Positions 3,169 through 20,002 of a stretch of 64,000 bases of DNA are shown piece by piece (the first letter of the stretch is position 1; every line of letters begins with the position of its first letter). Both the position numbers and the translations under genes were made by a program. This DNA is from an uncultured Clostridia bacterium (GTDB taxonomy: Bacteria; Bacillota; Clostridia; Christensenellales; CAG-314), in NCBI GenBank assembly GCA_947625725.1, contig CANQPI010000001.1, positions 22,085 to 86,084 of the forward strand, given 5' to 3'. The notes beneath the pieces are model-generated. The model did not search any database. It was given only the letters and a program-made list of their open reading frames with translations, and was not told the origin of the DNA.

Positions 3169-3903
3169 TTATTGAAGTTTGGATTTAACCGAAAACCCGA
3201 GCACAGCACGATACTCCTTTTCAACAAGAGAGTAGGCGTAGCCAGTCTCGCTATTGATATAGCAACTATAACTCCCGTAGTTTTTGAAAGGAGAACGCAA
3301 CCACCAACTGAAGCCAAGACTCCGTGCTCGTTGATTGTTAAAAAGTGCATATTGCTCCCCTTCTCCCGGGAACGAGTAGTAATTTCCTCCACAAACCTCT
3401 ATCTCGGATAGCGGGAAAAGTTTGTTGTAAGTGTCAACCAGAGTAGAATTTTGCCCGCTCGTTGCTGTTTTCTTTGCTGTAACCGCAGCATATTCGGAGA
3501 TTTCTTTAGGCAGCATTTTTTCGAACAACGGCAATCTATTGTGCAGTTCACTCGTTTCCCACTTGTTAGACGCCAAACCGAAGTTCCATCCCCCGTCAAT
3601 TCCTATAATGATAAATGTTGCGGGGCTCGTAGCACCGTTCTCGTCGATGTCGTGATTGAAATCTGCAAGAATTACTTTTAACTTCCCCTTAATACCAGCG
3701 CATGACTGGACAATAGCATAATCTCCAACCATAAAGCGCTCATCGGGATATTCTGATGTCGCTATGTATTCAAGCATTTCGCCAAGAGAACAGTCAACCT
3801 GCCTCGGGACGCGGCATTCAACGGATTGGACGCGCATAATACGACAATTCCCGCAGTGAGGCTTCGTTCCTAACAGTTCGCAGTAATTACAGTTTCCTTC
3901 CAT
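3169..3903 (-). CDS. hypothetical protein, DUF6273-like (WWLRSP) with N-terminal Cys cluster
   Basis: 244-aa ORF, TAGGAG RBS; CNYC..CGNC N-terminus; FSWWLRSP near C-terminus. Confidence 0.7.
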   Translation of the reverse strand: MEGNCNYCELLGTKPHCGNCRIMRVQSVECRVPRQVDCSLGEMLEYIATSEYPDERFMVGDYAIVQSCAGIKGKLKVILADFNHDIDENGATSPATFIIIGIDGGWNFGLASNKWETSELHNRLPLFEKMLPKEISEYAAVTAKKTATSGQNSTLVDTYNKLFPLSEIEVCGGNYYSFPGEGEQYALFNNQRARSLGFSWWLRSPFKNYGSYSCYINSETGYAYSLVEKEYRAVLGFSVKSKLQ

Positions 3904-3914
3904 TGTTATTACTC

Positions 3915-4364
3915 CTATCTAATATTCTTCCAATATTTAATTGCGTCCGTCGCCAATTTGTCGCAACGGTTATTATATTTGTTGTCTGCATGTCCTTTGA
4001 CTTTTACGAAACGCACCGAGTGCATTTCTATTAGCTCAATGAGCTGTGTCCATAAATCCTTATTTTGAACGGGCTTTTTACTGCTATTTTTCCAGTTAGA
4101 TTGTCGCCAAGCAGCAATCCAGCCACAATTAAATGCGTTGACCACATATGCCGAATCACTATATATGGTAACAATGCAATTATGTTTCAACGCGGAGAGT
4201 GCCTTTATGACCGCTGTTAGTTCCATTCTGTTGGAAGTGGTATTTGGTTCTGCTCCGTACAATTCTTTTTTGTGAGTGCCGCATATTAGAACAGCACCCC
4301 ATCCGCCAACGCCGGGGTTCCCGGAGCAGGCTCCATCGGTGTAAATGGCGACTTCTTGATGCAT
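3915..4364 (-). CDS. rnhA: ribonuclease HI
   Basis: Start moved to M23 (AAGGAG + 7 nt). IYTDGAC (Asp), NRMELTAV (Glu), YSDSAYV (Asp), GHADNKYNNRCDKLA (His/Asp): canonical RNase HI catalytic set. Confidence 0.9.
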   Translation of the reverse strand: MHQEVAIYTDGACSGNPGVGGWGAVLICGTHKKELYGAEPNTTSNRMELTAVIKALSALKHNCIVTIYSDSAYVVNAFNCGWIAAWRQSNWKNSSKKPVQNKDLWTQLIELIEMHSVRFVKVKGHADNKYNNRCDKLATDAIKYWKNIR

Positions 4365-4871
4365 TTTAATCTCCTTTACGCAATCCTCGCTATTAGCGCT
4401 TGGTCTCATTCTGTGAGCTCTGAATGGCATTTGAGTACGGGGAGTAGTTTCGCGGTGACGAAATGCTATTTGTAATACTCAATGTAGCCAAATTACTAAT
4501 AGTTTGGGTGTGGTGTTGAAGGCATTGGCGACTTTGGGGCTTTTTGGGGGCTACGTGCGGGAATGTCTACAGGTGATCAGTAAGTGCCCATAGCAGCGTC
4601 CGGTTGGCTCCCGCTGTCACTTCGCGTTACCTTGAATTTCATTCGAGGCTCTAATGGAAATTAGAAACAGCGATTGCGAAATTTATTATTGTTGTAAAAT
4701 TAGATGCTCACAAACGCGGAAGGATGTGTATGCGGAAAGCCGACGGCACGGAAGGCTTTCCGCATATGCATCCGACGCGTTTGATTGGGTGGCGTCAAAG
4801 CGCTAATCCTCGTGTAGGAAGATATGTTTAATGTAATCAAACACCTGATGATTCAGTATTCCCATCCAATT
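4365..4871 (-). other. ORF-free spacer between RT and RNase HI; candidate RT-associated non-coding RNA region
   Basis: 507 nt with no RBS-preceded ORF on the transcribed strand in an otherwise gene-dense arm; contains several hairpins. Confidence 0.4.
4714..4780 (-). other. 67-nt extended hairpin (12-bp perfect core ATGCGGAAAGCC/GGCTTTCCGCAT plus two flanking helices)
   Basis: ACGCG-tc-GGATG-cat-ATGCGGAAAGCC-12 nt loop-GGCTTTCCGCAT-aca-CATCC-ttc-CGCGT read directly; only a weak U-tract follows. Confidence 0.7.
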
Positions 4872-6299
4872 TTATATGTTACCTTTGTTTAACAAGCGTC
4901 TAATGTCTATTTGACACTTGGACGTATAGTGAGCAATGTACGAATCTATCGTATCAGGCTCAATAGAATGACAATAGGAAATCTCTCCCGCGAGAGCTTG
5001 TATATCTTTGCTGTCCCAAGTGCGTCCGTTTTTGTAGTCTGTACCCAGTGCGAACAACGCAGTTTTGAGATGCTTTTTACGCTTGTATCCAACCGTGATG
5101 TTATTATCTTGGTTGAGCATCAATCCGAGGTTCCAGTTGCGTCCAGCAGATGAACCATAGCGAATTTTCTTGTTGCTAAACGTGAAAGGAGCACCGGCTT
5201 TTTGCAGGATTTCAAGCAATCCACACAAAACTTTAGTGTGATGTTTATCTTCTTCAATCATTGCGTTTAGAATGTTCCTGAATTTAGGCGCGCTGTCCTT
5301 GGTGATTTGGATTGTTTCCATTGTAACTACGCTGCTAGGATGATTTTCTTTGAAACGCTTGAGCGATGCGGTCGCCGCCTCTTGCTTATCTCGATAAATT
5401 ACGGGCACGTTGTCTACCGAAATTTTGAATATGGGGTAAGGAACGTATCCATTTTCATCGGGATTTTTTACATACTTCAGGCTCTCGACAATCCTTGCGT
5501 GGGACATAATTCGTTGTATTGCGTAATTTTCAAAGTCGAATTGACTCGATAATTGGATGTCGTCTGCGAACCTTGTATAAATCAAGTGCGGCTGGTGATC
5601 TCTTGCAAACTTGGCAATGGAATGGTCGATCGGAATCATGAGAAGATTTGTAAGCATCGGACTTATCGGTGTTCCTTGTGGTAGTCCGCCGTTCAAGAAA
5701 CAAATCGACAAGGCTTTTTGCAACTGTTCGCGCCCCTCTTCTTTTCCCAGAACAAGGTTAAATGGATAGATGAGAGAAAGCATCTTGATTGCAAAATCCA
5801 TCGTTATGCTTCCAAAGAAATCGTGGAAATCAGTTTTGAGAAACCAACGCGAGTTGTTGGCTTGATGTCGCCGTAGCGCATCAATCGGGGAGCGGTTTGG
5901 GATATAAGCAAAAGCAGAAGTGTGGTAGTTTGCAAAGAACGAAGTCTTCAGCAAATATGCCAACGTTCGTTGTGCCTCCATGAGGTCGTCATTTGGCGCA
6001 TCGATTCGTCTCAAGCCGCCGGTCTTTTTGGGTATGGGGAACGAGTGGTAAAAAACTGATTTGTCCTCGGCATCAATAAATTTTTTGAAGTGGCTGTTGA
6101 ACCCCATGAGTTTTCGAATGAGTTCATTGACGTCGACCTTGTTAATTAAGCGTTGCGGAGTTATTTCTCGATATATGGTTCGCGTGTCTCTTGTATCTTT
6201 AGAGGACGTTTCAAAGCAATTTGAATTAACACCTTGTAGCAAATCGTCAAATGAAACTTGCACTTCGCGAGGTTGAATATAATATGTAATATACGGCAT
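4872..6299 (-). CDS. reverse transcriptase, retron/unknown-group (UG/DRT)-like
   Basis: IPKKTGGLRRIDAP, YIPNRSPIDALRRH, FLKTDFHDFFGSI, LPQGTPISPMLTNLL, YTRFADDIQLSS in canonical order; TAGGAG RBS. Confidence 0.9.
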   Translation of the reverse strand: MPYITYYIQPREVQVSFDDLLQGVNSNCFETSSKDTRDTRTIYREITPQRLINKVDVNELIRKLMGFNSHFKKFIDAEDKSVFYHSFPIPKKTGGLRRIDAPNDDLMEAQRTLAYLLKTSFFANYHTSAFAYIPNRSPIDALRRHQANNSRWFLKTDFHDFFGSITMDFAIKMLSLIYPFNLVLGKEEGREQLQKALSICFLNGGLPQGTPISPMLTNLLMIPIDHSIAKFARDHQPHLIYTRFADDIQLSSQFDFENYAIQRIMSHARIVESLKYVKNPDENGYVPYPIFKISVDNVPVIYRDKQEAATASLKRFKENHPSSVVTMETIQITKDSAPKFRNILNAMIEEDKHHTKVLCGLLEILQKAGAPFTFSNKKIRYGSSAGRNWNLGLMLNQDNNITVGYKRKKHLKTALFALGTDYKNGRTWDSKDIQALAGEISYCHSIEPDTIDSYIAHYTSKCQIDIRRLLNKGNI

Positions 6300-6594
6300 T
6301 TTGTATCTCCTAATAAACTACAGTATGGAAAACGGTTTCCCTCAGATCAGACTGCTCCGGAGGAAGCTGGGGTGGGGGCGACGTTCAGTCGTCCGATTTG
6401 CACGTTTTTGCTGAAATCCGCTACGAAAATTGGCTAATTGAATCAGTTTTTGTTGTTGGATAACATCAACGGGTCTTGGAGAGAGCTAAGGAAGACGCCG
6501 CGATGCAGAAGTCTCTTCTTCGGGTCGGATTGTCGCGTTCACAATGCGGTACTTTTAATGTCATTAAAAGCCTTATATAAGAATGCTTTATTAG
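6300..6594 (-). other. ORF-free spacer upstream of RT; candidate ncRNA/leader
   Basis: 295 nt without ORF between E1-like stop and RT start; hairpins at 6552-6570, about 6385-6400 and 6328-6341. Confidence 0.4.
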
Positions 6595-7269
6595 TTAAAA
6601 TGTGTCGATTGCGAATGTAAATGGATTAGCAACGGCTATATGAGTCAGTGCCCCTTGACGAACAAAGTTCATAAAGTTGGTTATTCCAAGCGCGCAAATA
6701 ACGCGTACGGTTGGAGCTACTCCCATTTCAACGTTGCAAGCGGTCACGGGAGTTGTTTCTTTTGCTTCCTCGTGGGTAAAGTCCATGGTACTGATAAATC
6801 CATCTATATCCCTTGGGTTGTTCCAGTCGGCAGCGTAGTGTTGGGCATCTTCTAGTCTCGTTCGGAAGTCAAACATCGCCTTGATCGCGCGATTGAATTT
6901 ATTTTCCGTGGCAATTTGGCGTCGCAAGTCGATGTTGTCTACGCAGAGAAAGACATAACCGTTAAGCCTCACTTTTGGCTCCCAGCCCTGAGAGCAAATT
7001 TCAACGTTGTTTTCGCAGTCGGGATTGATTGCGACTAACATCTTTTTGACTGCCTCGACTTTCGGGGCTCCAATGTCCGAGTTGACAAACATTTGGTTTG
7101 CGATATTATGTGCGACGACTCTATCAAAATCGTAGAGTGTGATTTTCGTAAGACCCAGTCTAACGAGCAGTTCGGCGATGGTAGAGCCTACGGAGCCGCA
7201 ACCAATAATGTGGCAGCGCTCCCTGATTTTTGTTGGGTTGAAGTAGTCTATAGATTTGACAAGATCCAT
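6595..7269 (-). CDS. E1-like (ThiF/MoeB/HesA family) adenylyltransferase, minimal form
   Basis: Start moved to M11 (AAGGAGGTGA upstream; 8-nt gap after JAB stop). IIGCGSVGSTIAELLVRLG Rossmann loop, YDFDRV, CVDNIDLRR, Cys in TACNVE. Confidence 0.8.
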   Translation of the reverse strand: MDLVKSIDYFNPTKIRERCHIIGCGSVGSTIAELLVRLGLTKITLYDFDRVVAHNIANQMFVNSDIGAPKVEAVKKMLVAINPDCENNVEICSQGWEPKVRLNGYVFLCVDNIDLRRQIATENKFNRAIKAMFDFRTRLEDAQHYAADWNNPRDIDGFISTMDFTHEEAKETTPVTACNVEMGVAPTVRVICALGITNFMNFVRQGALTHIAVANPFTFAIDTF

Positions 7270-7277
7270 TGGTAATC

Positions 7278-8138
7278 TCACCTCCTTGGGTATCTCCACT
7301 TATTATAGGGGCTATAATCCCATTCATCGGGTTCTTCGTCGTCGCGCGCAGGAGCATCCATATAGTTCATGCTTGTTTGGGGACTATACTGTTGTGCCTT
7401 TCCTTTCGTCTTCTTTGTGGAGTTCACTCCCAGCGGATAAAGTGGGCGTGGAGTAGGAACAGTCACTTTTTTGCCTGTTTCTTTAATGAAGTTCTCAAGG
7501 GTTTCGCCGTCCTCAAACTCTACGCTTATTGTTATTTCGTTAGTATTGTACAAGGCATTGTATTGAAGATCGTATATTAAACTTGTCACTTCGCCCCTCT
7601 TGTTGACTATCATGAATATGTAGAAAACGTCGTTGTTTTCGTTGGGGGTTTCGAAAAGGTTAAGTATCTTTTTCTGGTAGGCGGTGTCGACTGCCGAGGG
7701 GGTACATCCCATATTGACGTGGCTATGTCCGTGTAGGCGCACTTTATTGAAAATGTCGTCGGGCAAACTGTCGAGCCATTGGTTATACTCGCCTTGGTCA
7801 GATGTGACTGTCGCTTCCGATACCTCGTGGGGAAATGTAAGGATGTCCTCGACAAGAAATTCCCTCTCTGCCGTTCGCGTAACGAGCCCATGCCATTGCA
7901 CTTCTGTATTATAGGTGATTACTAAAGCGTACATTTTTGCATAAGCCTTCGGAGTGAACCGGAGAGTTGCTCGCCGATCATCAAAGCCGTTGTCCCCAAG
8001 AGAAAAAGAGAAGTTGAATTGAGGAATGTCTGTAAGTTGCAGACGCTCTTTTCTCTTTGATTCAAGAAAAGCCTTGAAGTCCCCAAGGAGTTTCTCCGCA
8101 AGTTCGGGAGATGTATCACGTAGAATTTTTTTAGCCAT
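7278..8138 (-). CDS. JAB/JAMM (MPN+) metalloisopeptidase
   Basis: HGHSHVNMGCTPSAVD = HxHx7Sx2D with upstream Glu (FPHEVSE); start overlaps upstream stop (TAATG). Confidence 0.8.
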   Translation of the reverse strand: MAKKILRDTSPELAEKLLGDFKAFLESKRKERLQLTDIPQFNFSFSLGDNGFDDRRATLRFTPKAYAKMYALVITYNTEVQWHGLVTRTAEREFLVEDILTFPHEVSEATVTSDQGEYNQWLDSLPDDIFNKVRLHGHSHVNMGCTPSAVDTAYQKKILNLFETPNENNDVFYIFMIVNKRGEVTSLIYDLQYNALYNTNEITISVEFEDGETLENFIKETGKKVTVPTPRPLYPLGVNSTKKTKGKAQQYSPQTSMNYMDAPARDDEEPDEWDYSPYNKWRYPRR

Positions 8139-9526
8139 TATTCGTTCTCCTCGTCTTGTGATCTTTCGATGTAATTGACGAACTCGTCGGGAGTCATGCG
8201 GCGACCGTCATCAAGAAGAATGCACTTGCGCGAAAAGGCAAAATCTTCGATGTCTTCGATAAAGCGTCCCATAACCGTTGTATCAGAGAAATTTATATTC
8301 TTGGTCGCGGCAACCGCTTGATCGATTGCACTCTGCCAATCTCCCGACATCAGATAGTTGTCTATATATGCTTTATTGCCGCCAAGACACCCATAGTAAC
8401 AGAGGTGCGGGTGAGGCATTGCTTCCGGATCGTTAATGCAATGTCTCTCGCATCTCACTGGGGTTAATGCTGACAACCCTTTGAGTGTAAATTTGCTTTC
8501 CACAACGAACACGCCCTTGTGTCGACGGAATATATAGTCGCATACTTTTTGAGCAAATGGGAAATCCTCGAAATAAGAGGCATTTTCGAGAACGTTGTCA
8601 ATAATATTTTCGTCATAATATTCCAATGTCTCTACAATGCCGAAGTCTATGGCACCCGAACCAGATGCCGTTACTTCGTTAATTCTCAGGTGTCTTCTCG
8701 ATTGGAAGAAATTCACAATTTCGTTTGCTTTGCTTTCCGGAGCTGACTTCCAACAGTATAACTCCTGCCTTATCTTGTCCAAGGTTTGCAAACAGCCGTC
8801 GATGCGTTCCTCATACTCCCTTACGTCGCTAATCAAAGACTCCTCGTTGCCTTCAAGGTTCTTAATGCGATTTTTGATGTAAGTTTTGTTGTAGTCCGTG
8901 AGCAGTTTAATTGTCGCAAGATTCGCGAAATCTATGCCTTGACATGCGTCGTTTATGATGCTTGCGATCAAGTCAAAATCAACCTTGCTCGAGGAACGAT
9001 GAACTGCTCCGAAACTTTTGTATATTTGAAGTTCCTCCCCTTCGGGATTGGTGGGATAAAACCACGGGAAAACACGGAACAGTGTTGAGCACAAAAGGCG
9101 TACCCAGCGCAATGTAATTTTACGAACAAAGATAATGCTCTTTTTAAGTTCGTTGTTGACGTATACTTTTGTTTCTTCCGCCGTTCCCAAATATTGGTTT
9201 ACTGGGTAGGGCTTTGAATCAAGTGCTACCCACCCCTCTGCAAAAATTGTAGGAAGAGCCTCGTCTTGACGTGCCGCCGTTCCTATAAATAAATCGCAAT
9301 CGTTTGTTTGGGATATGAATGGATTCCCATCGGCGCCGCGAACAACTTGTGCATGCGGTTTTATGAGTTGTAGCGTCGATATATCACCATGGTGGTGCTT
9401 GAGAACAATATACCTCAACACCGCTTCGAGCTCGACGCTACCGTCGAACTCGAGAGGTTGTTGGCTAAAATAAGCGTTTGCGCTGGGGCCTGTAAGTATA
9501 GTTGTTAACCTATCCATTGCAGACAC
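8138..9526 (-). CDS. E2-like (UBC-fold candidate) protein with long N-terminal extension
   Basis: C-terminal MPHPHLCYYGCLGGN resembles the E2 HPN-x-Cys active-site signature; sits between the Ubl and JAB genes; TAGGAG RBS. Confidence 0.55.
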   Translation of the reverse strand: MSAMDRLTTILTGPSANAYFSQQPLEFDGSVELEAVLRYIVLKHHHGDISTLQLIKPHAQVVRGADGNPFISQTNDCDLFIGTAARQDEALPTIFAEGWVALDSKPYPVNQYLGTAEETKVYVNNELKKSIIFVRKITLRWVRLLCSTLFRVFPWFYPTNPEGEELQIYKSFGAVHRSSSKVDFDLIASIINDACQGIDFANLATIKLLTDYNKTYIKNRIKNLEGNEESLISDVREYEERIDGCLQTLDKIRQELYCWKSAPESKANEIVNFFQSRRHLRINEVTASGSGAIDFGIVETLEYYDENIIDNVLENASYFEDFPFAQKVCDYIFRRHKGVFVVESKFTLKGLSALTPVRCERHCINDPEAMPHPHLCYYGCLGGNKAYIDNYLMSGDWQSAIDQAVAATKNINFSDTTVMGRFIEDIEDFAFSRKCILLDDGRRMTPDEFVNYIERSQDEENE

Positions 9527-9541
9527 TCCTATGTATTGATG

Positions 9542-9778
9542 TTATCTTGCTCCGTCTGCCTTCACGATGGCGCCAAGGGCAATTTCGTCGCCGGACTTGT
9601 AACCCAAGTTTTCGAGGGTGCTGTTGAGCTCCGTGTTAGTCAGGGTTTTGCCATTGATGTTGACGGAACAGCCGCCGACGTTGGCTCCAACCTGAGCGAA
9701 TATCTCCAAAGGAGTTGTGCTGGGCTGAACAGTGATTTCTCTACGAGTTGTATTAGTTTTTACGCTGACTTTAATCAT
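9542..9778 (-). CDS. ubiquitin-like (ThiS/MoaD beta-grasp-like) small protein
   Basis: 78 aa; ..VNINGKTL..LGYKSGDEIALGAIVKADGAR pattern typical of ThiS/MoaD-type Ubls; AAGGAG RBS; first gene of the coupled cassette. Confidence 0.6.
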   Translation of the reverse strand: MIKVSVKTNTTRREITVQPSTTPLEIFAQVGANVGGCSVNINGKTLTNTELNSTLENLGYKSGDEIALGAIVKADGAR

Positions 9779-9841
9779 GTTTGTTTCTCCTTGTTTATTA
9801 TTTTGTTTTAGAGGGGGCGCGGTTAAGCGCCCCGTTTGTGG

Positions 9842-10276
9842 TTAGCCGCGGCGAGCAGGTGTCTCGGTCACTACGCCCACAACGCTGATTTTGCTGACGA
9901 GGTCAGCCTTTGCGTCACGGATTGCTTTCGCAGCCCGGGGCACGCTTGTTTCGAGCGTCTTAACGTAGCCAATAACGCCGCCAAGTTTCTCAGCCACATA
10001 GTCCTTAGCCTTGTCGTCGCTAAGACCAGTTTCCAAGGTGCCTGTGAATGTAGCAAAGCCTTCTGTGCCGCGAGAAGTTCCGCCAAATACCATTCCGAAT
10101 CCGCTAACCGTGTCTTTGCCTTCTTCATAGGCAATACGGAATACGTCGCGCTCGATATCGCCTTCCTTGGTTGTGATTGCGAGCCCATTGGGATTGTACT
10201 TTTGCAGAAGCTTGATGTCCTCGACTTTAATCGCGGATGTCACCACAAAAGTGTTTGCAACGATTTGAATTTGCAT
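9842..10276 (-). CDS. hypothetical protein ending in ..TPARRG
   Basis: Start moved to M14 (AAGGAG + 8 nt); 144 aa; GC-rich hairpin (9814-9833) separates it from the Ubl gene. Confidence 0.7.
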   Translation of the reverse strand: MQIQIVANTFVVTSAIKVEDIKLLQKYNPNGLAITTKEGDIERDVFRIAYEEGKDTVSGFGMVFGGTSRGTEGFATFTGTLETGLSDDKAKDYVAEKLGGVIGYVKTLETSVPRAAKAIRDAKADLVSKISVVGVVTETPARRG

Positions 10277-10339
10277 AGTTTGTTTCTCCTTTTCATGTAT
10301 TTTTTTTATCATCACTCGAAAGAGTTTGATACAATAAAT

Positions 10340-10496
10340 ATGGAACGGAACGCCTCAATGTATAAGAAGAAAATAAAAACAAAAGAGGTAGTAGAAAGTA
10401 TCCGCGTTTCTCTACTGCGACAAAAAAGAAAGGTCGCTTTATGCTTAAAGAAAGAAGATGGTAGAGGCATCTTGACGAAAAGACGCTCCGTTCCAT
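10340..10496 (-). ncRNA. structured element bracketed by a 13-bp helix, directly 3' of the tRNA-like element
   Basis: AUGGAACGGAGCG (10496-10484) pairs with CGUUCCGUUCCAU (10352-10340). The single non-Watson-Crick pair is G-U only on the minus-strand RNA. Two internal hairpins. Confidence 0.4.
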
Positions 10497-10595
10497 TGGT
10501 GGAGAGTGGTGGAGTCAAACCACCGCGGTAGGACGTATGGCGCCAAGCCTACCAGGGAGTTCGCGTCCCCTGCTTAATCGCTTGCGTAACTCTCC
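10497..10595 (-). ncRNA. tRNA-like element (class-II-like, non-canonical), ends in ACCA
   Basis: 7-bp acceptor stem GGAGAGT/ACTCTCC + ACCA; T-arm-like GGTGG-TTTGACT-CCACC; anticodon-arm-like GGGGA-CGCGAAC-TCCCT; long extra arm. No proper D-arm; G33; C56 absent. Confidence 0.35.
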
Positions 10596-10609
10596 ATAAT
10601 TAACAAAAT

Positions 10610-10948
10610 TTATTTTTCGTTTGGCTCTCGCTCAACGCATTCGCCATCAACAAAGTGGTAATCTCCCGAATAAGCGCAATCAGCGCAGTCATCGGTTTCG
10701 TCGCCGCCGAAGGGACAATCAAAGCCGAAGTCCTCTCTTAACCGTGCGCCACATTCCGGGCAGTAGTTAAGACCAAATTTTTCTTTCAGTCTTTCTTTCA
10801 CCCTCTCTGTTGCTTCTTCAATATTTTCCCCTTGCGCAAATGCAAGGAAATAACCACATACCGAGCATTTCGCTACGACTATTCCTTCGCCTGCTTCCGG
10901 TCTTGGTCTTATTATCGGCTCGTGCAATTCGTTTTCTCTCGTTTCCAT
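10610..10948 (-). CDS. hypothetical zinc-ribbon protein
   Basis: Start at M8 (GGAGG RBS); CSVCGY...YCPECG pairs. Confidence 0.7.
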   Translation of the reverse strand: METRENELHEPIIRPRPEAGEGIVVAKCSVCGYFLAFAQGENIEEATERVKERLKEKFGLNYCPECGARLREDFGFDCPFGGDETDDCADCAYSGDYHFVDGECVEREPNEK

Positions 10949-10965
10949 TATTGTTCCTCCGTTTG

Positions 10966-11271
10966 TCAAACTATTGCTAACTTAATGCTTGTGTGCTGAT
11001 CACTTTCCCAGCCTTGAATAAAGGCGTCGAAGTCTGTATCGGTATCCTTGTCGATGATCAGTGAACCTTCTTCAGGGTTGCCGTCAGCGTCTGTGGATGC
11101 TTGTTCGTCCGCTATCCACGACTCACGCTTTTCGCGTTCGACGAGTTCCTTGAACGCAGTACGGGCTTTGTTCTCATTGGTGAAAGGTGTTACTTCGACA
11201 CCATGGTTGCCATCGTATGCCCACTCAAAAATGAGGCAAAACGTGTGATTTGACGCTTCCTGATTGTTCAT
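10966..11271 (-). CDS. hypothetical protein
   Basis: Start at M20 (AAGGAG RBS). Confidence 0.65.
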   Translation of the reverse strand: MNNQEASNHTFCLIFEWAYDGNHGVEVTPFTNENKARTAFKELVEREKRESWIADEQASTDADGNPEEGSLIIDKDTDTDFDAFIQGWESDQHTSIKLAIV

Positions 11272-11321
11272 AAAAGACTCCTTTGATTGAATTGTGCAGA
11301 GTACTGTATTGCCCCTCTTGT

Positions 11322-11660
11322 TTACCACGACGTGAGAATATTTTGATGTGCAATCTCATCGAGGGGGAACACATATACGTCTGGGCACATCTTTGGGTAT
11401 GGGATATCTATGCCCACCTGATATCCATTAAAGAATTTTCGAATAAGCTCGGAAACCAAATGCTGATTTTCTTGCCAAGATCCATCTCCCGGGTATGAAT
11501 CAAGGAATAGAGTCAAGGTGTTGGCGGCGCCATCCGAAGAATAACAGATTTGGTAAAACCTTACGGGTTCTGCGTTTCCGGTGGTTTTGGATAAGTCAAC
11601 AATATTGTGCTCTTCCAAAAATTCTTTTATTTGATTTAATTGTTCACTTGTGATGTTCAT
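11322..11660 (-). CDS. hypothetical protein
   Basis: Start at M23 (AAGGGG RBS). Confidence 0.65.
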   Translation of the reverse strand: MNITSEQLNQIKEFLEEHNIVDLSKTTGNAEPVRFYQICYSSDGAANTLTLFLDSYPGDGSWQENQHLVSELIRKFFNGYQVGIDIPYPKMCPDVYVFPLDEIAHQNILTSW

Positions 11661-11677
11661 AAAAGCCCCCTTTGTAA

Positions 11678-11875
11678 TCAAAATTCTTGCCAATCGGTGC
11701 ACTTGCCATCGGGAGACACGGCACATATTTGTTTCTCAAGGAGTTCGCCCGGCTCAAGGACAAACTCTCCTTTTCTGTATTTCTCTTGGGCAATTTCCAA
11801 CGCTTCCTCTTCGTTTTTAGCTTCGACAGTAAATCCATCGGTGACTGTTTCTTGTATCCAAACTATAAATTTCAC
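11678..11875 (-). CDS. hypothetical small protein
   Basis: 65-aa ORF, GTG start 8 nt after AAGGAG. Confidence 0.6.
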   Translation of the reverse strand: MKFIVWIQETVTDGFTVEAKNEEEALEIAQEKYRKGEFVLEPGELLEKQICAVSPDGKCTDWQEF

Positions 11876-11951
11876 AATTGATTCTCCTTTAACCCGACCA
11901 GAAAATTATAAGATGTTGCGCGTCTCTTTGGGCACGTATTTGGGCGAGGTG

Positions 11952-12209
11952 TTATAAACTATTCTTCATCACTTTCAGAATGTATGACAACTCCTTACAG
12001 GGAGCCCTGTTTTCGGCAGTCATGTTTCTTAGAAGTTTCTGGGAGAGACTGGGGTAAAGGTCTGCTAACATTCTGAGCGTTTTATCGTGTTCGAGGATCT
12101 CTTTCAACATTTTGAGTTTCGCTTCTTTCTTTGTTGGTGCGATTATAGAACTGCTGTAACCCCCATTGATTGAGAGCGTAACGAAATACGGTTTAAGAGG
12201 CTTAGACAT
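11952..12209 (-). CDS. hypothetical protein
   Basis: 85-aa ORF with AAGGAG RBS. Confidence 0.65.
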   Translation of the reverse strand: MSKPLKPYFVTLSINGGYSSSIIAPTKKEAKLKMLKEILEHDKTLRMLADLYPSLSQKLLRNMTAENRAPCKELSYILKVMKNSL

Positions 12210-12263
12210 ACAAATATCTCCTTTTATTTTTTATTTTCAAAAGTTTCAGATAACTCTTCGAAA

Positions 12264-12992
12264 TTACCTTTCTACGAGAATCGAGTTGTCGCTTACTTTA
12301 TTGTAGATGAATGTGCGGTGATTCGCGCCGTCGATGTATTCCGTGTGTTCTTCGTCGTTAACGAGAGGATACATATTCCTTGCCCATAAAATAATCGCGT
12401 CCCGCAATTCTTCGTTATCTTCGTCGCTTGTATCAAACCCTTGCAGAGCGAGGAGCGGTGCAACCCTTCGGAAAAACACCTCGTCGTACCAATCATCGAA
12501 ATCATCGTACTCGTCTTTTAAGTGCGTGTCATAGGGACCATTCTCCACATCGCATTTCATGTCGTAAAAGACATCCAAAAGTGCGGTGCTACGGATTACT
12601 TCTTCGTCGTTTCCCTCTAAATAAGCGCAACATTCATTAACCCAACTTTTTACCCAAGATTCAAGCGAAACATAGCTCCCGTAGAGTTTCTTGATTCGCT
12701 CAACCATATCGGCTTGTCTTCTCGGGATTTTTCCCTCTGCCATAAAAGGTCCGTACTGGAGATAGAGTTCCCGCATCTCTTCCGATTTTATTTTGCCATA
12801 AGGAAGGCTTGCAATTCGAAGCCAGTATGCTACCGGATCAATTTGCACATTCACGATTTTAGCGTTTGATATTTCGGCGTCAGCACTAGATGCCGCGATA
12901 CAAACGCCACCCCTGCAGTCACTGTGACAAACCAAATTTTTGAAGTTGATATCGTCCGCAACCTCTGCGGAAATCATGATAAGTGTTTTCAT
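12264..12992 (-). CDS. hypothetical protein
   Basis: 242-aa ORF, GGAGGG RBS 5 nt upstream of ATG. Confidence 0.75.
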   Translation of the reverse strand: MKTLIMISAEVADDINFKNLVCHSDCRGGVCIAASSADAEISNAKIVNVQIDPVAYWLRIASLPYGKIKSEEMRELYLQYGPFMAEGKIPRRQADMVERIKKLYGSYVSLESWVKSWVNECCAYLEGNDEEVIRSTALLDVFYDMKCDVENGPYDTHLKDEYDDFDDWYDEVFFRRVAPLLALQGFDTSDEDNEELRDAIILWARNMYPLVNDEEHTEYIDGANHRTFIYNKVSDNSILVER

Positions 12993-13010
12993 CAACGCCC
13001 TCCGTTTTAT

Positions 13011-13073
13011 ATTTTAATAAAAGCCCCAGTTCCACCCACCATCAAATCGCTTGAATTGCGGATGGAAGTGGGG
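13011..13073 (-). terminator. intrinsic terminator candidate closing the 14.4->13.0 kb transcription unit
   Basis: 11-bp stem (CCCCACTTCCA / TGGAACTGGGG, one mismatch) followed by CTTTTATT on the minus strand. Confidence 0.6.
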
Positions 13074-13074
13074 C

Positions 13075-13646
13075 GAAATTTGCTGCGGCAACCAGAGATA
13101 TCACTAGTCGACATTACTCGGACTTCGCTTTCTCACTCGGAAACTTGATACGTAATTGCAAACTAATAATAGTTTTTTTGGCTTCCACTATGGCAGGAAC
13201 TCTCCCGTATTAGTTTCCTTGATTACGAACCAACAACTATCAAATTTATTGTCGCAATGGCACCACGCCGGTTTAATTAAAGTAGCGAAGCTATCGGGTT
13301 ATTACGTTGTAGCCCAAAATAATAATCCGTTCACATCTCGCAGTTCGGAGGAAAGAGCGGCTTGTCATCTGCCCAACAAGCGAGGCAGCCAAATGCATGG
13401 CTTAACGTCTTTGCTTCGTACGGTTTTTATGCAACCTTCCGTCAAATAGTTGGTGTGGTTAGCACCTGACTTTCAATCTGTTGCCTTTGGTGGGTTTGGT
13501 CGGAAATGCTCCGCCATCTTCGGTCGCCCGATGTTTTTCTGCTTAAACTATGAACCCATACAATATTGTCCCCGAGGCGTTGCTGCCCTTCTACCTTTCG
13601 GGGAGGCTGACACTCAGCTAATAGGCAGTTTTTTGCCGTCCTTTTA
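13075..13646 (-). ncRNA. 570-nt ORF-free tail of a strongly promoted transcript; candidate large non-coding RNA
   Basis: No RBS-preceded ORF on the transcribed strand; flanked by a terminator; plus-strand ORFs in the track lack RBSs and look non-coding. Confidence 0.35.
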
Positions 13647-13799
13647 TTACCTCTCTGACATAGCTAGCCTGACATCAGTCAGGGAGGCGACGAGCGCGGC
13701 AAGACACCGCGTCGGCTTCTCTCGCGACGAGACCGATATTATTGTGAAAATTGTCACCCCAAAGCGCGGGGCATTCGCGGGCTGTTCATCGAACTCCAT
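13647..13799 (-). CDS. possible 50-aa ORF
   Basis: ATG 9 nt after AGGAG; MEFDEQPANAPRFGV...; below the track length cutoff. Confidence 0.25.
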   Translation of the reverse strand: MEFDEQPANAPRFGVTIFTIISVSSREKPTRCLAALVASLTDVRLAMSER

Positions 13800-13884
13800 T
13801 TACCACAGCTCCTATTACTCTCAGGCAAGCTTCCCGACGATCCAAGCGTCTTGCTTCTCCTTGTTGCTTCGTGGCACCCATTTT

Positions 13885-14064
13885 TTACGCTTTTGATTTA
13901 CGTTTGCGACGAGCGCGGGGCATTCGCGGTACAATCCATTTTCTCCAATTGCAAGAAAATTTGCTGACGCGGTTTCCCTTGCCGTCGCGCATTGGCTTAT
14001 TCAGGCGGTCAATGCCTGCCGTCTGCATATTGTATCTGGCGATACTTCTTAAAAGTTTTCTCAT
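13885..14064 (-). CDS. possible 59-aa highly basic protein
   Basis: ATG 5 nt after AGGAG; MRKLLRSIARYNMQTAGIDRLNK...PRMPRARRKRKSKA; below the track length cutoff. Confidence 0.35.
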   Translation of the reverse strand: MRKLLRSIARYNMQTAGIDRLNKPMRDGKGNRVSKFSCNWRKWIVPRMPRARRKRKSKA

Positions 14065-14441
14065 AATAACTCCTATTATAGTTTCACAATCCTAACGCGA
14101 CAGAATGTTAATCCAGCGAAGGAAGGAGACGCATTCGAGGTGCTTCTGGCGTGTGAGGAGTTTGTTGGTTTAATGGTTGTTTAATGGTTTTAATCAACAA
14201 TAATTCTGAAAAGTGAATGGGTTTTTATCCTAAGAGAAAGGTTCGAGTATTTAAGAGATGGTCGCGAACGCTCATTCGAACCGCTCAAGGGGCTTAGGGT
14301 TCCGATGAAAGTGACCAGATGGTATCCCTCAGGCGGCTTCCCGCCTTCACTTCTCGATGCCCTGAACGTTGTCCAAGGTTCTACAAGGTAGAAATGCGAT
14401 TGTGAATTGCTTTACAGTCCCCAAACGTGTCGTGTAATTGT

Positions 14442-14470
14442 ATTATATGACACAGATGTGGAGTTGTCAA
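14442..14470 (-). promoter_or_regulatory. sigma-70-type consensus promoter (TTGACA-17-TATAAT) with A-rich upstream tract
   Basis: Minus strand: TTGACA at 14470-14465, exact 17-nt spacer, TATAAT at 14447-14442; AAAAAAACTTTCAAAAAAA just upstream. Confidence 0.7.
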
Positions 14471-14490
14471 GCGTTTTTTTGAAAGTTTTT

Positions 14491-14871
14491 TTAAGAATTT
14501 TCTTTGGCTTTGCGAGCTTTCATTTTCGCGTACCAACGGTGTTGATATTCGGCACGCTTACGCCTTTGCTCCGCCAAGATTTCCTCGGCGGTTGGCGCAG
14601 CCCCCGAAGGAGCGGGGACAAGACGTCTGACGGGTGCCGTCAAAGATGCCGCATTGACGACCTCAATGGATGCGATCTCAGCCGCGAGGGCGGCTTTGCT
14701 TGCAACCAAGGTGAGATATGTTGCATCTTCCTTGTCGCAGGGAATGGTGGCGCCGGTGCAGTTGAGCTTGATGTCGACGTGCCCAACGCGGTCGATTTTT
14801 TTGATAAGTTGCGTTACGTGCTTGAGCGCCTTAGCCTTACGCCCAATAATTTCAGCTGTTCTGTTATCCAT
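14491..14871 (-). CDS. hypothetical protein
   Basis: Start at M9 (AAGGAG + 8 nt). Confidence 0.7.
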   Translation of the reverse strand: MDNRTAEIIGRKAKALKHVTQLIKKIDRVGHVDIKLNCTGATIPCDKEDATYLTLVASKAALAAEIASIEVVNAASLTAPVRRLVPAPSGAAPTAEEILAEQRRKRAEYQHRWYAKMKARKAKENS

Positions 14872-17494: not shown

Positions 17495-17528
17495 TCGTTA
17501 TCCTCCTGGAATGTTGGTCAATCGTCAC

Positions 17529-17599
17529 GCCGTTCGGTTGCCGTTGGACGGTTGCCACTATAAGGGACGAGCCGTCAACCCCTTTAGGGGTTAGGTTGC
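17529..17599. repeat. 71-bp dispersed direct repeat, copy a
   Basis: Identical to 17668-17738; contains GGTTGCC x2, CCGTTGGACGG, GACGAGCCGTC and the AACCCCTTTAGGGGTT palindrome. Confidence 0.9.
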
Positions 17600-17667
17600 G
17601 GCACCCCCCCCACACACGCGAGGGGTGTCGGCACAGCCTGCCCACATAGGCGGGCGCCGTCGTGGTT

Positions 17668-17738
17668 GCCGTTCGGTTGCCGTTGGACGGTTGCCACTAT
17701 AAGGGACGAGCCGTCAACCCCTTTAGGGGTTAGGTTGC
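17668..17738. repeat. 71-bp dispersed direct repeat, copy b
   Basis: 71/71 identical to 17529-17599 by direct comparison. Confidence 0.9.
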
Positions 17739-17879
17739 TCGCGGTGGTGGGTGTTCTGGTCGCCCCCTTCCCCTGCACCCTATCCCCCACCGACGTACGC
17801 ACACGCTCGCGGTGGTGGGTGTTCTGGTCGCCCCCTTCCCCTGCACCCTATCCCCCACCGACGTACGCACACGCTCGCG
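17738..17879. repeat. 68-bp tandem repeat, 2.1 copies; C-rich on plus strand, G4-type motif on minus strand
   Basis: Units 17738-17805 and 17806-17873 identical. Minus strand reads GGGGGATAGGGTGCAGGGGAAGGGGG in each unit. Confidence 0.9.
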
Positions 17880-17896
17880 TGTGTATATGTGTGCGT

Positions 17897-17932
17897 AAAA
17901 AAAATCCCGCAGGGATTTTGCACCCTGCGGGA
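17897..17932 (-). terminator. strong intrinsic terminator after the HTH gene
   Basis: Minus strand TCCCGCAGGG-tgcaaaat-CCCTGCGGGA followed by T8, 17 nt after the stop of 17949-18809. Confidence 0.8.
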
Positions 17933-17948
17933 CTGCGTTTCAACCCCT

Positions 17949-18809
17949 TTAGGGGTTGATGCGTGGCAAGTTCGTTTTGTCGGTTCCACCGAGATTTTCA
18001 ATCTCGGTGCGTATCCAAGTGCGTACCTCGCTTGCCATCGCTGATACGCGTTGCTTGCTTATAGCAAGCAATTTGGCGGTTTCAGCCGTTGGCTTTTTGA
18101 GTACTACGTACTCAAAGCACTTCCAGCGTTTGGCGGTAGCGTAGGGGTGCTTGCGTTTGACTTCGTCAAACGCGGCGACGAGCGCGTTGCCCTGCTTTGG
18201 CGTGGAGAAGTATTTCTTTGCCCCTAAAGGGGGCAAAGAGCATTCGTCCTGTTCGGGTTCAACCCCTTCGGGGTTGAGCGAGCAAATTTGCTGAGTGGCG
18301 AACCTAAGGTCACGGTCGCAAACCTCTTCCTTCGGAAGAGTTTTGCGGTCACGGCTCTTGTAGTCGTCACGGCTGTCGATTGCTTTAGCAATCGCCTCGA
18401 ACCCTCGCGTGATTGCGTGCGCGACGTTGCCGTCCCTGACAGCCTCGCACACCGCGAGGACGAAGTCCTCGCGCCATTCTTGCACCTCATTCGTAAGTTC
18501 TACGAACTTACGGGCACTGTCCACGAGGTCGTAGGGCAGGTATGCGTTGCGTGCGAGCGTTGCGTGCTTGCTTGCGACGGCGGCGGCATAGTGCAGGAAG
18601 TCGAGATGCCCGAAGTAACCTACCTCTACGAGGTAGGTTAGGTCGTCGATTGGGTAGCACTCAAGACTAAAAGTCTTGGCGAGTTCAACGAGGCGGCTGA
18701 GTTCGGCTTGCAGGTGGCTCTCACGGACTTCGTCCGTGAGGCTGTCGTCTGCGAGGGTTGCAATGACTTCGTCATTGGCGATTGCGTTTGTTTGTTGGCT
18801 GTGTTTCAT
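17949..18809 (-). CDS. HTH protein with sigma-70 region-4-like C-terminus
   Basis: Start at M31 (AAAGGAG + 5 nt). C-terminal FEYVVLKKPTAETAKLLAISKQRVSAMASEVRTWIR resembles sigma region 4 / LuxR-type HTH. GC-rich codon usage unlike neighbours. Confidence 0.6.
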   Translation of the reverse strand: MKHSQQTNAIANDEVIATLADDSLTDEVRESHLQAELSRLVELAKTFSLECYPIDDLTYLVEVGYFGHLDFLHYAAAVASKHATLARNAYLPYDLVDSARKFVELTNEVQEWREDFVLAVCEAVRDGNVAHAITRGFEAIAKAIDSRDDYKSRDRKTLPKEEVCDRDLRFATQQICSLNPEGVEPEQDECSLPPLGAKKYFSTPKQGNALVAAFDEVKRKHPYATAKRWKCFEYVVLKKPTAETAKLLAISKQRVSAMASEVRTWIRTEIENLGGTDKTNLPRINP

Positions 18810-18908
18810 TTTTGCTCCTTTGCCCCTACGGGGCAACCAACCGTCCGTGGCTTGCGTACCCCTTTGGGGTAGCGGTTGGCTCGGTGGGCTGGCTCCCACC
18901 TTGCCACC

Positions 18909-18917
18909 ATTGTACCA
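18909..18917 (-). promoter_or_regulatory. possible extended -10 (TGGTACAAT) for the HTH gene
   Basis: TGnTAcAAT on minus strand about 100 nt upstream of the ATG; three small hairpins in the leader. Confidence 0.3.
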
Positions 18918-19003
18918 CGCCGACGGCGGAATGGCGCAACGGATTTGCAGAGCAAATCCCGTGACGGGCGCGATAACTCACTTCGCGAGTGCATACGCCT
19001 AGG

Positions 19004-19080
19004 CACGCTAATATCCCACTTCGCGGGCGGGCGGGCGCTTGCACGCTAATAACTAACTCTCGCGCGGGCGCGGGCGGGCG
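19004..19080. repeat. 38-bp imperfect direct repeat x2 with GGGCGGGCGGGCG tracts
   Basis: CACGCTAAT at 19004 and 19042, each followed by a CGCGGGCGGGCGGGCG-like run. Confidence 0.6.
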
Positions 19081-19354
19081 TCTATCCTTGTCGCGCGCAC
19101 ACGTGCGGGCGCGCACTTAAGGTTTATTATTTCTTGGATATTTTGTTTGGGAAGTAACGTGGACGTGGGTTGCCTGTCGCTCTTGGGGGTAGGGGGTTGA
19201 GGGTATTATAAAATACTTAGTGGAAATCAAAGATACAAGAGGGTTTGCCGTCGTGGGGTTGGCGGTGTGGTAGTTGCTTGTTTGCTCTCTGGCGGTGGCA
19301 CTTTGCCACCGAACTCGCGGGGAAATAGTATATATAAAAATAAATAATTCGGGG

Positions 19355-19376
19355 GGCTTGCCTCCCTGCGTGGCGG
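19355..19376 (+). repeat. core of the GCCTCCC..GTGGCG motif in inverted orientation
   Basis: GGCTTGCCTCCCTGCGTGGCGG on the plus strand; other copies carry this core on the minus strand; followed by the 9-bp-stem hairpin 19379-19407. Confidence 0.4.
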
Positions 19377-19704
19377 TTGATATTATCTTTTTAGCGTAGA
19401 TAATATCGCAGGGCAGGGGCTATTTTACACATAAATTTATTATATAAATACACCAAAACAATATGTCAGTTCTCCTTCCATCCCACCAAAAAATCCCCGA
19501 CATTTTTACCCCAATTTTCCTCGAAACTCCGTTCGGAGATCTATCGTACACTAGGGAAAGTTTGCTCTCATGCAAATTGCCCTCGTTATCAAATACCCCG
19601 GGGTACAATTACACAAAAGCCCGCACAGTAGGACAAGTTGTCGAAGACGACAAAAAAAGCCCCTTTTATATAGATATAAGTTATGCTTATTTACGACAGT
19701 AAAA

Positions 19705-19750
19705 CTATCTACTATAGGGGTAAAGTATAAGCTATCTACACAGGGGTAAA
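19705..19750. repeat. direct repeats CTATCTAC-N2-3-AGGGGTAAA x2 (iteron/operator-like)
   Basis: 19705-19724 and 19732-19750 in the AT-rich divergent region. Confidence 0.6.
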
Positions 19751-19780
19751 CTATATATTAGTATATTAGAGTACCCAAGT

Positions 19781-19823
19781 AACAGAGAGTACAAATAATA
19801 GTACACACTAAACAGAGAGTACA
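19781..19823. repeat. direct repeats AACAGAGAGTACAA x2
   Basis: 19781-19794 and 19811-19823; additional AGTACAC words nearby. Confidence 0.6.
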
Positions 19824-20002
19824 ATTAAAATAAAAAAAATAAAAGAAAGATTTACATCAGTAAACATATAGTACACAAGATATGCGTATATAACTAATAG
19901 CTAAATACGCGTACTTATATTATGTTTACTAATAAACTATTTAATATTAGATAAATATTAGAAAAAAAATATAAATTTTTCAAATAAATTATTAAAAAAC
20001 TA

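Follow-up and report, generated by a model that had tools for sequence, protein, structure and literature searches.

Reverse transcriptase locus and retron-style RNA units

The window studied here is a stretch of 64,000 nucleotides (nt) from contig CANQPI010000001.1 of an uncultured Clostridia bacterium (assembly GCA_947625725.1, positions 22,085 to 86,084). It belongs to a tailed phage that encodes a tape-measure protein and a terminase, and its minus strand carries the gene of a retron-type reverse transcriptase (RT) accompanied by candidate noncoding RNA (ncRNA) units, which are designated U1 to U4 below. The coordinates of the RT, the units and the neighbouring genes are collected in Table 1.

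The gap upstream of the RT gene is 295 nt long; it starts with CTAATAAA-G and ends with TAG-TTTATTAG right before the ribosome-binding site (RBS). The unit that it holds consists of a 5' arm, an unpaired G, hairpin 1, hairpin 2, a linker like GTAACAAATTG, a variable region, a G and a 3' arm, after which the RBS comes. As predicted from the sequence, this layout is the defining architecture of a retron ncRNA. Relatives from IMG/VR repeat it with arm sequences that differ yet stay complementary. When the two intergenic regions of the window were compared with those of relatives by nhmmer, almost no sequence conservation was found, so the ncRNA had to be detected via its structure. Rfam returned nothing relevant for the entire window at the gathering threshold, nor, with the retron msr family included, for positions 4300-14600 at E values up to 5.

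Table 1 Features of the window (RBS, ribosome-binding site; aa, amino acids; ORF, open reading frame)
Feature	Position	Strand	Details
Retron-type RT	4872..6299	minus	475 aa; catalytic D157 and D246-D247 (F-A-D-D) invariant in the family
Insertion in the RT	5229..5516	minus	net 96 aa, about residues 262-357; between motif 5 (FADD) and motifs 6/7
U1	6310..6594	minus	285 nt; 5' arm CTAATAAA 6594-6587; unpaired G 6586 (candidate priming G)
U1, inner parts		minus	hairpin 1 6581-6572; hairpin 2 6570-6552; linker TACCGCATTG 6551-6542; C-rich variable region; TAG
U1, end		minus	3' arm TTTATTAG 6317-6310, then RBS GGAG and RT ATG at 6299
U2	4696..4873	minus	178 nt; 5' arm AAAATTGGAT 4873-4864, overlapping the RT stop codon; G 4863
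U2, inner parts and end		minus	hairpins 1-3; long msd-like hairpin; 3' arm ATCTAATTTT 4705-4696
U3	4379..4678	minus	300 nt; 5' arm CGCAATC 4678-4672; G 4671; hairpin 1 CTAATttccATTAG; hairpin 2 CCTCGAATgaaATTCAAGG
U3, end		minus	3' arm GATTGCG 4385-4379, directly 5' of the RBS of the RNase HI gene
U4	14083..14406	minus	324 nt; 5' arm TTCACAATC 14406-14398; G 14397; two hairpins; TAG; 3' arm GATTGTGAA 14091-14083
Consensus promoter	14442..14470	minus	TTGACA-17 nt-TATAAT, about 35 nt upstream of U4; read from the sequence, putative function
RNase HI gene	3915..4364	minus	NF001236, 200 bits (cutoff 160); likely start ATG 4364
Conserved upstream operon	6595..9778	minus	four genes; candidate partner or effector, linked to the RT by synteny only
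Putative ubiquitin-like protein (Ubl)	9542-9778	minus	78 aa; small protein in Ubl position
p462	8138-9526	minus	462 aa; invariant His/Cys, H374 and C380 in PHPHLCYYGCLGGN
p286, JAMM/MPN+ peptidase	7278-8138	minus	286 aa; invariant E79, H138, H140, S148, D151
ThiF/E1-like adenylyltransferase	6595-7299	minus	matches to Cap2 E1 models

Pairing within the units was evaluated on a mini-construct of 28 sequences, in which the 5' domain was joined to the 3'-arm region and the variable middle was excluded. In the arms and hairpin 2, 90.4% of the alignment cells pair, compared with 65.8% after shuffling of columns and 32-42% with slid partners. Compensatory changes are present in 17/17 pairs, including all ten arm pairs (10/10), and RNAalifold finds hairpin 2 unaided. 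For the window's own clade, the corresponding values are 97.7% against 75.9% for shuffled columns, with compensatory changes in 12 of the 13 pairs. The arm finder itself selects for complementarity; therefore, the positions of the G were anchored by a covariance model that holds no arm pairing, and the partner site was taken 120-450 nt downstream. In 99 of the 133 anchored units, the bases immediately preceding the G can form at least eight Watson-Crick pairs with the downstream site, while control anchors shifted by -25, -17, +9 or +21 gave such arms in 0-2 of 133. The base preceding the 3' arm is G in 108/110 units. Both hairpins covary strongly, and their recognition by the RT in the manner of an msr is predicted.

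Several units per reverse transcriptase

Is one such unit linked to each RT, or are there more? The covariance model R1 gave 86 matches in 49 IMG/VR sources and 61 in loci from Clostridia metagenome-assembled genomes (MAGs); 147 out of 147 lie on the RT strand, and none was found in 11 proteobacterial retron control loci. The number of R1 matches per locus ranges from one to six; they precede the RT, follow it immediately or, in some cases, lie kilobases from it. With a clade-specific model, close relatives yield up to seven matches per 13-kb locus. The extra units have their own arms, their own G and a length of ~200-370 nt. In other clades, a retron unit was also seen directly upstream of a metallophosphoesterase gene (locus L004, 9852-12535).

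The units of one locus share hairpin 2 in particular: its identity is 0.81 within a locus versus 0.47 between loci, a value reached by none of 2000 permutations, whereas arm identity hardly differs (0.57 within a locus, 0.53 between loci). Since hairpin 2 is alike within a locus while the arms differ, these comparisons point to one RT serving all units of its locus. In addition, the variable region is richer in C than in G in 64 of 67 units, against an overall excess of G over C on the same strand of the loci, and G-U pairs are present within the helices of the units. Taken with the shared hairpin 2, the base composition and the G-U pairs point to a strand-specific function as RNA or cDNA and not to a double-stranded repeat.

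In the window, U1 precedes the RT, U2 and U3 lie within the 507-nt gap between the RT and the ATG of the RNase HI gene at 4364, and U4 is 7.8 kb off, followed by an RBS and the ATG (14064) of a 59-aa basic ORF. U2 and U3 were detected by alignment of close relatives, ten of which show covariation of the arms, and U4 by the clade-specific model, whose seed did not include it (30.2 bits). The models R1 and R2, built from distant relatives, found only U1 in the window, even with the filters off. The predicted fold of U2, with its long msd-like hairpin, is that of a classical retron (z = -6.97).

Some further signals were noted around the units. The 10-mer TTCGCAATCG at the end of the ThiF gene (6615-6606), just before U1, occurs again as the 5' arm of U3 (4680-4671), which could be due to chance. 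A promoter-like TTGTGA-17-AATAAT (4713-4685, minus strand) ends 7 nt short of the U3 arm. A scan of positions 4200-6900 for promoters and terminators gave counts at chance level.

Assignment of the reverse transcriptase

The translation of the RT gene contains, in this order, IPKKTGGLRRIDAP, YIPNRSPIDALRRH, FLKTDFHDFFGSI, LPQGTPISPMLTNLL, YTRFADDIQLSS, QFDFENYAIQ...LEILQKAG, FSNKKIRY and RNWNLGLMLN; the ORF and the motifs in canonical order that had been quoted in the initial annotation of this DNA are all present on the minus strand at 4872-6299. Pfam RVT_1 corresponds to residues 89-255 (E 2e-19). All 25 RT matches listed by PADLOC are matches to retron RT models, with RT_II-A at the top (142 bits), followed by RT-TIR_XII and RT_III-A. 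Among the NCBIfam models, retron_St85_RT gives the top match with 160.8 bits (cutoff 235), and the group II model TIGR04416 (59 bits, cutoff 300), Drt2 (35.5 bits, cutoff 390) and Drt3a (27.8 bits, cutoff 200) match far more weakly; no type-specific retron model of NCBIfam reaches its curated cutoff with the window RT. The best nine matches in a sequence search of PDB are retron RTs, including those of Ec83, Kva2, Ec78 and Ec67. An AlphaFold model was built from a 44-sequence alignment (mean predicted local distance difference test score, pLDDT, 87.9), and its top 13 Foldseek matches are retron RTs as well (E 5e-14 to 2e-10), followed by group II, Eco8, DRT9 and DRT2 enzymes (DRT, defence-associated RT). 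A protein search with the RT returned 4480 proteins at E <= 1e-5; among the best 120 of these 4480, most are 376-403 aa long and a few 433-503 aa. In one source, a family member is labelled 'retron-type reverse transcriptase'.

In the VTG motif of retron RTs (RT7, region Y), the G is the most conserved residue, as is the H in the NAXXH motif (region X, between RT2 and RT3) (PMC7736814). In the HMMER alignment with the Ec83 RT, R-N-W-N-L-G-L of the query stands opposite N-R-H-V-T-G-V, which bears out the initial observation of NLG at the VTG position and adds that the G is retained. In the same alignment, A-L-R-R-H stands opposite N-A-K-I-H; the H of NAXXH is kept, and the N and A are not (family consensus AVKRH). 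Thus, neither motif is found literally: V and T are substituted family-wide and NAXXH reads ALRRH in the query, and both G392 and H145 are invariant across the 44 family members. As judged from the alignment, this deviation is a property of the entire RT family and not of the window gene alone.

The initial annotation had regarded the RT as fitting no known class cleanly. At the level of types this agrees with our results, as the best score (160.8 bits against 235) leaves every type model unpassed. At the level of classes it was not upheld: because of the profile matches, the sequence matches to solved structures and the fold matches, and above all because of the neighbouring retron-style ncRNAs, the RT is assigned to the retron class. 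By these comparisons it is predicted to be a retron-clade enzyme outside every existing type model.

Other assignments were tried and rejected. Retron type II-A (the St85/Sen2 family) is set aside on its score below the cutoff, and no NDT-like neighbour was seen that could stand for the N-glycosidase/NDT effector of this type. For the unknown-group (UG)/DRT and abortive-infection (Abi) RT class, the Drt2 and Drt3a scores are far below their cutoffs and the DRT2 and DRT9 fold matches are weak; for a group II intron RT, with its maturase/En domains and its place inside intron RNA, the TIGR04416 score is likewise low, and Rfam detected no intron RNA in the window. The RTs of diversity-generating retroelements (DGRs) come with a pair of template and variable repeats and carry another signature at motif 4, which is LPQGTPISP here, and the DGR RT fold match is weak (E 2e-6).

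Between S252 and F372, the window RT has 121 aa, compared with 25 aa in the family majority of ~380 aa; the ~125-aa stretch after FADD that had been described initially corresponds to this interval, with a net insertion of 96 aa. The same stretch measures 69, 109, 112 or 123 aa in other long family members, and an insertion, with a net length of 44 to 98 aa, is found in a minority of the family. In the alignment with retron Ec83 RT, query residues 262-366 are placed opposite chain residues 202-210. Modelling gave a confident structure for the insertion, whether within the full-length protein or on its own (pLDDT 84.8): a compact alpha/beta domain made up, in order, of a long helix, a beta-hairpin, a helix, a strand and a helix. 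Foldseek retrieved no structural relative of this domain from PDB (best E 0.4) or BFVD. The earlier suggestion of a lineage-specific domain fits this restricted occurrence, the variable length and the Foldseek result. Because most of the RT family lacks the insertion, it is presumably not essential for catalysis; it would be an accessory surface domain of one sublineage, dispensable for the core chemistry. At its other end, the RT has an N-terminal extension of ~55 aa relative to the Ec83 RT, which is conserved in the family (invariant M1, T5, Q14, T41 and others); residues 1-80 (window 6060-6299) were modelled as a small strand/helix domain.

Phage context and neighbouring genes

The large terminase is 42% identical to terminases of SPbeta-like Bacillus phages, and relatives of the RT occur in MAGs of Christensenellaceae, Oscillospiraceae, Lachnospiraceae and other Clostridia on contigs of up to 467 kb. 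On these grounds, the host element is probably a temperate SPbeta-like (pro)phage. No DNA similarity to the locus was found among 50,697 phage records, and a tRNA/tmRNA scan found none. The sole deposited phage record with a full-length RT relative is MT835544.1, a phage contig from human faeces that carries no annotation; its RT relative is 40% identical and in two pieces. Curated phage collections are essentially without the RT family.

Downstream of the RT lies the RNase HI gene, a conserved neighbour whose mechanical ORF call starts at 4430, inside U3. Retrons require RNase H1 for the maturation of their multicopy single-stranded DNA (msDNA) (PMC8989520). Where a locus has enough flanking sequence, the Ubl/JAMM/E1 genes are almost always found upstream of the RT. 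Searches of Pfam and PDB gave no significant match for p462, nor for p286, which has weak similarity to RPN11 only. PADLOC matched no retron effector of types I-XIII.

Several observations concern more distant parts of the window. The early region encodes an AAA_33 P-loop kinase with a fused further domain and a DUF6273 protein (142-1200 and 3169-3903, minus strand), a set that, together with the metallophosphoesterase of relatives, recalls RNA-repair or anti-defence genes of phages. A stretch of 889 nt (12996-13884, minus strand), flanked by a 243-aa ORF and by the 59-aa ORF that follows U4, holds no ORF of at least 60 aa on the gene strand; with a GC content of ~0.5, a fold z of -1.7 and no Rfam match, it may be another large ncRNA or decayed genes. 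At 17500-20000, a GC-rich block (0.56-0.61, with a 316-aa ORF lacking a Pfam match) is followed by an AT-rich 500 nt (GC 0.30), and gene orientation switches from minus to plus; this is probably a divergent control region or an acquired gene.

Proposed explanation and its alternatives

The best explanation of these data, to which we give a probability of about 0.6, is a retron RT of an SPbeta-like (pro)phage of gut Clostridia that has at least four msr-msd-like partner RNAs and a role in conflict. That the RT is a retron RT with cognate ncRNAs is, on the comparative evidence, very probable, and the extra units probably act as templates too. Each unit is closed by its own predicted inverted-repeat stem, with an unpaired G just inside on the 5' side, and has two hairpins, a linker and then a C-rich, G-poor variable stretch of 100-250 nt. 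By analogy with retrons, the RT would bind the hairpins, above all hairpin 2, which is common to the units of one genome, would prime from the 2'-OH of the conserved G and would copy the variable stretch from the base adjoining the 3' arm; the template would then be removed by the RNase HI encoded next door. The outcome would be several distinct G/T-rich branched msDNAs per cell made by a single enzyme. The RT-msDNA complexes might control a neighbouring effector, for which the conserved Ubl/JAMM/E1 operon is the leading candidate, and the prophage conflict function might perhaps be superinfection exclusion or abortive-infection-type sensing.

A number of points weigh against this explanation. 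The entire retron case is a comparative one, in which the msDNA, its 2'-5' branch and the activity of the RT are predicted. Both hallmark motifs of retron RTs are degenerate, VTG being changed to NLG and NAXXH to A(L/V)(K/R)RH. As whole units, U1 (z -0.46) and U3 (z -1.9) fold no better than shuffled sequences, and their variable regions are without the long msd hairpin typical of classical retrons. The units precede varied genes (RT, RNase HI, metallophosphoesterase, small ORF), which also fits a leader or regulatory role. As for the partner operon, its link to the RT is synteny within one phage lineage and could be inherited gene order; two Clostridia MAG loci (L102 and L121) have no ThiF, JAMM or p462 gene within 6 kb upstream. 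No E2 similarity was detected in p462, including by hhalign against human E2, and PADLOC recognised no defence-type effector other than the E1-like gene.

How else could the locus be read? The same retron machine might serve phage counter-defence or replication, with the G/T-rich msDNAs as decoys or sponges for host sensors, nucleases or single-stranded-DNA-binding defence proteins and with Ubl/JAMM/E1 as an unrelated neighbour. In favour of it, over 100 phage contigs and MAGs, with RTs diverged to ~40% identity, keep the module in the same position, a pattern that resembles a core early function more than defence cargo with a patchy distribution; the neighbouring nucleic-acid enzymes (RNase HI, the AAA_33 kinase and metallophosphoesterase) are of the kind usually encoded in early or anti-defence regions of phages, PADLOC detected no effector of classical retrons, and U4 stands behind its own consensus promoter. 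However, a literature search found no precedent for msDNA decoys, and we know of none described. SPbeta-like phages are temperate, and with family contigs of up to 467 kb, prophage-borne defence is equally natural. We hold the counter-defence or replication reading to be rather unlikely. We think it improbable that the units are not RT templates at all. Under this reading, they would be leader or processing RNAs that act in cis, or else a family of small repeats, bounded by terminal inverted repeats, in the intergenic spaces of these phages, and the RT would act elsewhere or on U1 only. Such RNAs would suit the placement of units directly upstream of the RBSs of several unrelated genes, the distance of some units from the RT (kilobases) and the poorly structured variable regions. 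They would not account for the exact retron layout (arm, unpaired G, two hairpins, G, arm) in every unit or for the similarity of hairpin 2, but not of the arms, among the units of a genome, which is what recognition by a single protein would produce. Furthermore, the location of all matches on the RT strand, the G-U pairs and the C>G skew favour a single-stranded function over a double-stranded DNA repeat, and 4/4 units of the 64-kb window lie within 8 kb of the RT, with none in the structural-gene half.

It is highly improbable that the RT stands outside the retron class, as the initial annotation had it, either as an unknown-group/DRT-like or as an unclassifiable enzyme in which the insertion defines a new kind. 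The literal VTG and NAXXH are indeed lacking, no type-specific model passes its cutoff and the insertion has no known fold relative, but Drt2 and Drt3a reach only 35 and 28 bits against 161 bits for the retron model, the DRT2 and DRT9 fold matches are 5-7 orders of magnitude weaker than those of retron RTs, the insertion is absent from most family members and a retron-type ncRNA is present. Hardly to be expected, too, is a DGR-like or recombination-donor system whose unit cDNAs rewrite phage target genes. It is suggested by a phage-borne RT with several template-like RNAs, and DGRs are common in the gut phage context (PMC8867640). Against it stand motif 4 (QGTPISP, not the DGR signature), the weak DGR RT fold match and a search with U1 and U2 segments (U3 and U4 lay outside it), which match nothing else in the 64-kb window, part of a contig of at least 190 kb, beyond chance hits of 12-19 nt.

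For the preferred explanation, a retron RT with several partner RNAs, the biological role is put forward with low confidence; lysogen defence and counter-defence are not separated by the present data. We tentatively suggest, at somewhat less than even odds, a new retron type in SPbeta-like Clostridia (pro)phages, in which one RT would use up to seven tandem and dispersed msr-msd units with private arms, different C-rich templates and a shared recognition hairpin, giving a repertoire of G/T-rich msDNAs that would operate with the Ubl/JAMM/E1 operon. To our knowledge, described retrons combine a single RT with a single ncRNA and a single effector, and a literature search agrees with this; the search, whose coverage did not extend to subscription-only papers, found no account of multi-ncRNA retrons, phage retron arrays or retron-Ubl links. 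A natural system of one RT and many templates, if true, would alter the picture of one RT, one ncRNA and one effector. The recognition of the msr and the identity of the template would then be separable in nature, and a ready scaffold for multiplexed in vivo production of single-stranded DNA would be at hand. Such a system would also raise the questions of what use a phage or prophage makes of several G/T-rich msDNAs and whether a ubiquitin-like conjugation module can be a retron partner. It would moreover add to the retrons of gut Clostridia an abundant family that has thousands of homologues and goes unrecognised by present libraries of RNAs and defence systems.

Comparison with known systems

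With classical retrons (Ec86/Eco1, Ec83, Ec78/Eco7, Sen2/St85), the window system shares the RT clade by profile, sequence and fold. The predicted ncRNA likewise lies immediately 5' of the RT and has inverted repeats of the a1/a2 type, an unpaired G at the inner end of the 5' arm and msr-like hairpins followed by a template region; U2 even carries a long msd hairpin. In contrast to classical retrons, one RT is accompanied by several units (the window has four, and a 13-kb locus can have up to seven), most templates of the family are long, C-rich and weakly structured, and the RT family has NLG for VTG, AxxRH for NAXXH and the N-terminal extension of ~55 aa. A recognised effector of types I-XIII and an Rfam match at E up to 5 are also lacking.

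Retrons of prophages and satellites combine one msr-msd with a classical effector and are accessory cargo, as in the case of Ec67, Ec73 and Ec86. These three reside in P2/P4/186-related elements (PMC8867640). The window system resembles them in that a retron is located on a temperate phage element, and it differs in the conserved position of the module throughout a whole lineage of SPbeta-like Clostridia phages and in its many units.

DRT2 and DRT9 also combine an RT with a structured ncRNA yielding a long cDNA, which is predicted here, and a similarity of the RT fold is detectable. However, they belong to another RT clade (the window RT scores 35 bits with Drt2, and the fold E value is 1e-7 versus 5e-14 for retron RTs), and the window ncRNA is retron-like, with a candidate priming G flanked by a stem, and not of the DRT type.

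Finally, the upstream operon can be compared with bacterial ubiquitin-like conjugation modules, namely the Bil modules, which comprise an E1, an E2, a JAB deubiquitinase and a Ubl, and the Cap2-Cap3 modules of CBASS (cyclic oligonucleotide-based antiphage signalling system). Its gene order of Ubl, large protein, JAB and E1 presumably resembles that of Bil operons. The likeness extends to a small protein in the Ubl position, a JAMM peptidase with the invariant E, HxH, S and D, and a ThiF/E1 protein that matches Cap2 E1 models. In p462, by contrast, no E2 fold or family was detected, and the Ubl is putative by position. Unlike the Bil and CBASS modules, the module of the window is phage-borne and adjoins a retron.

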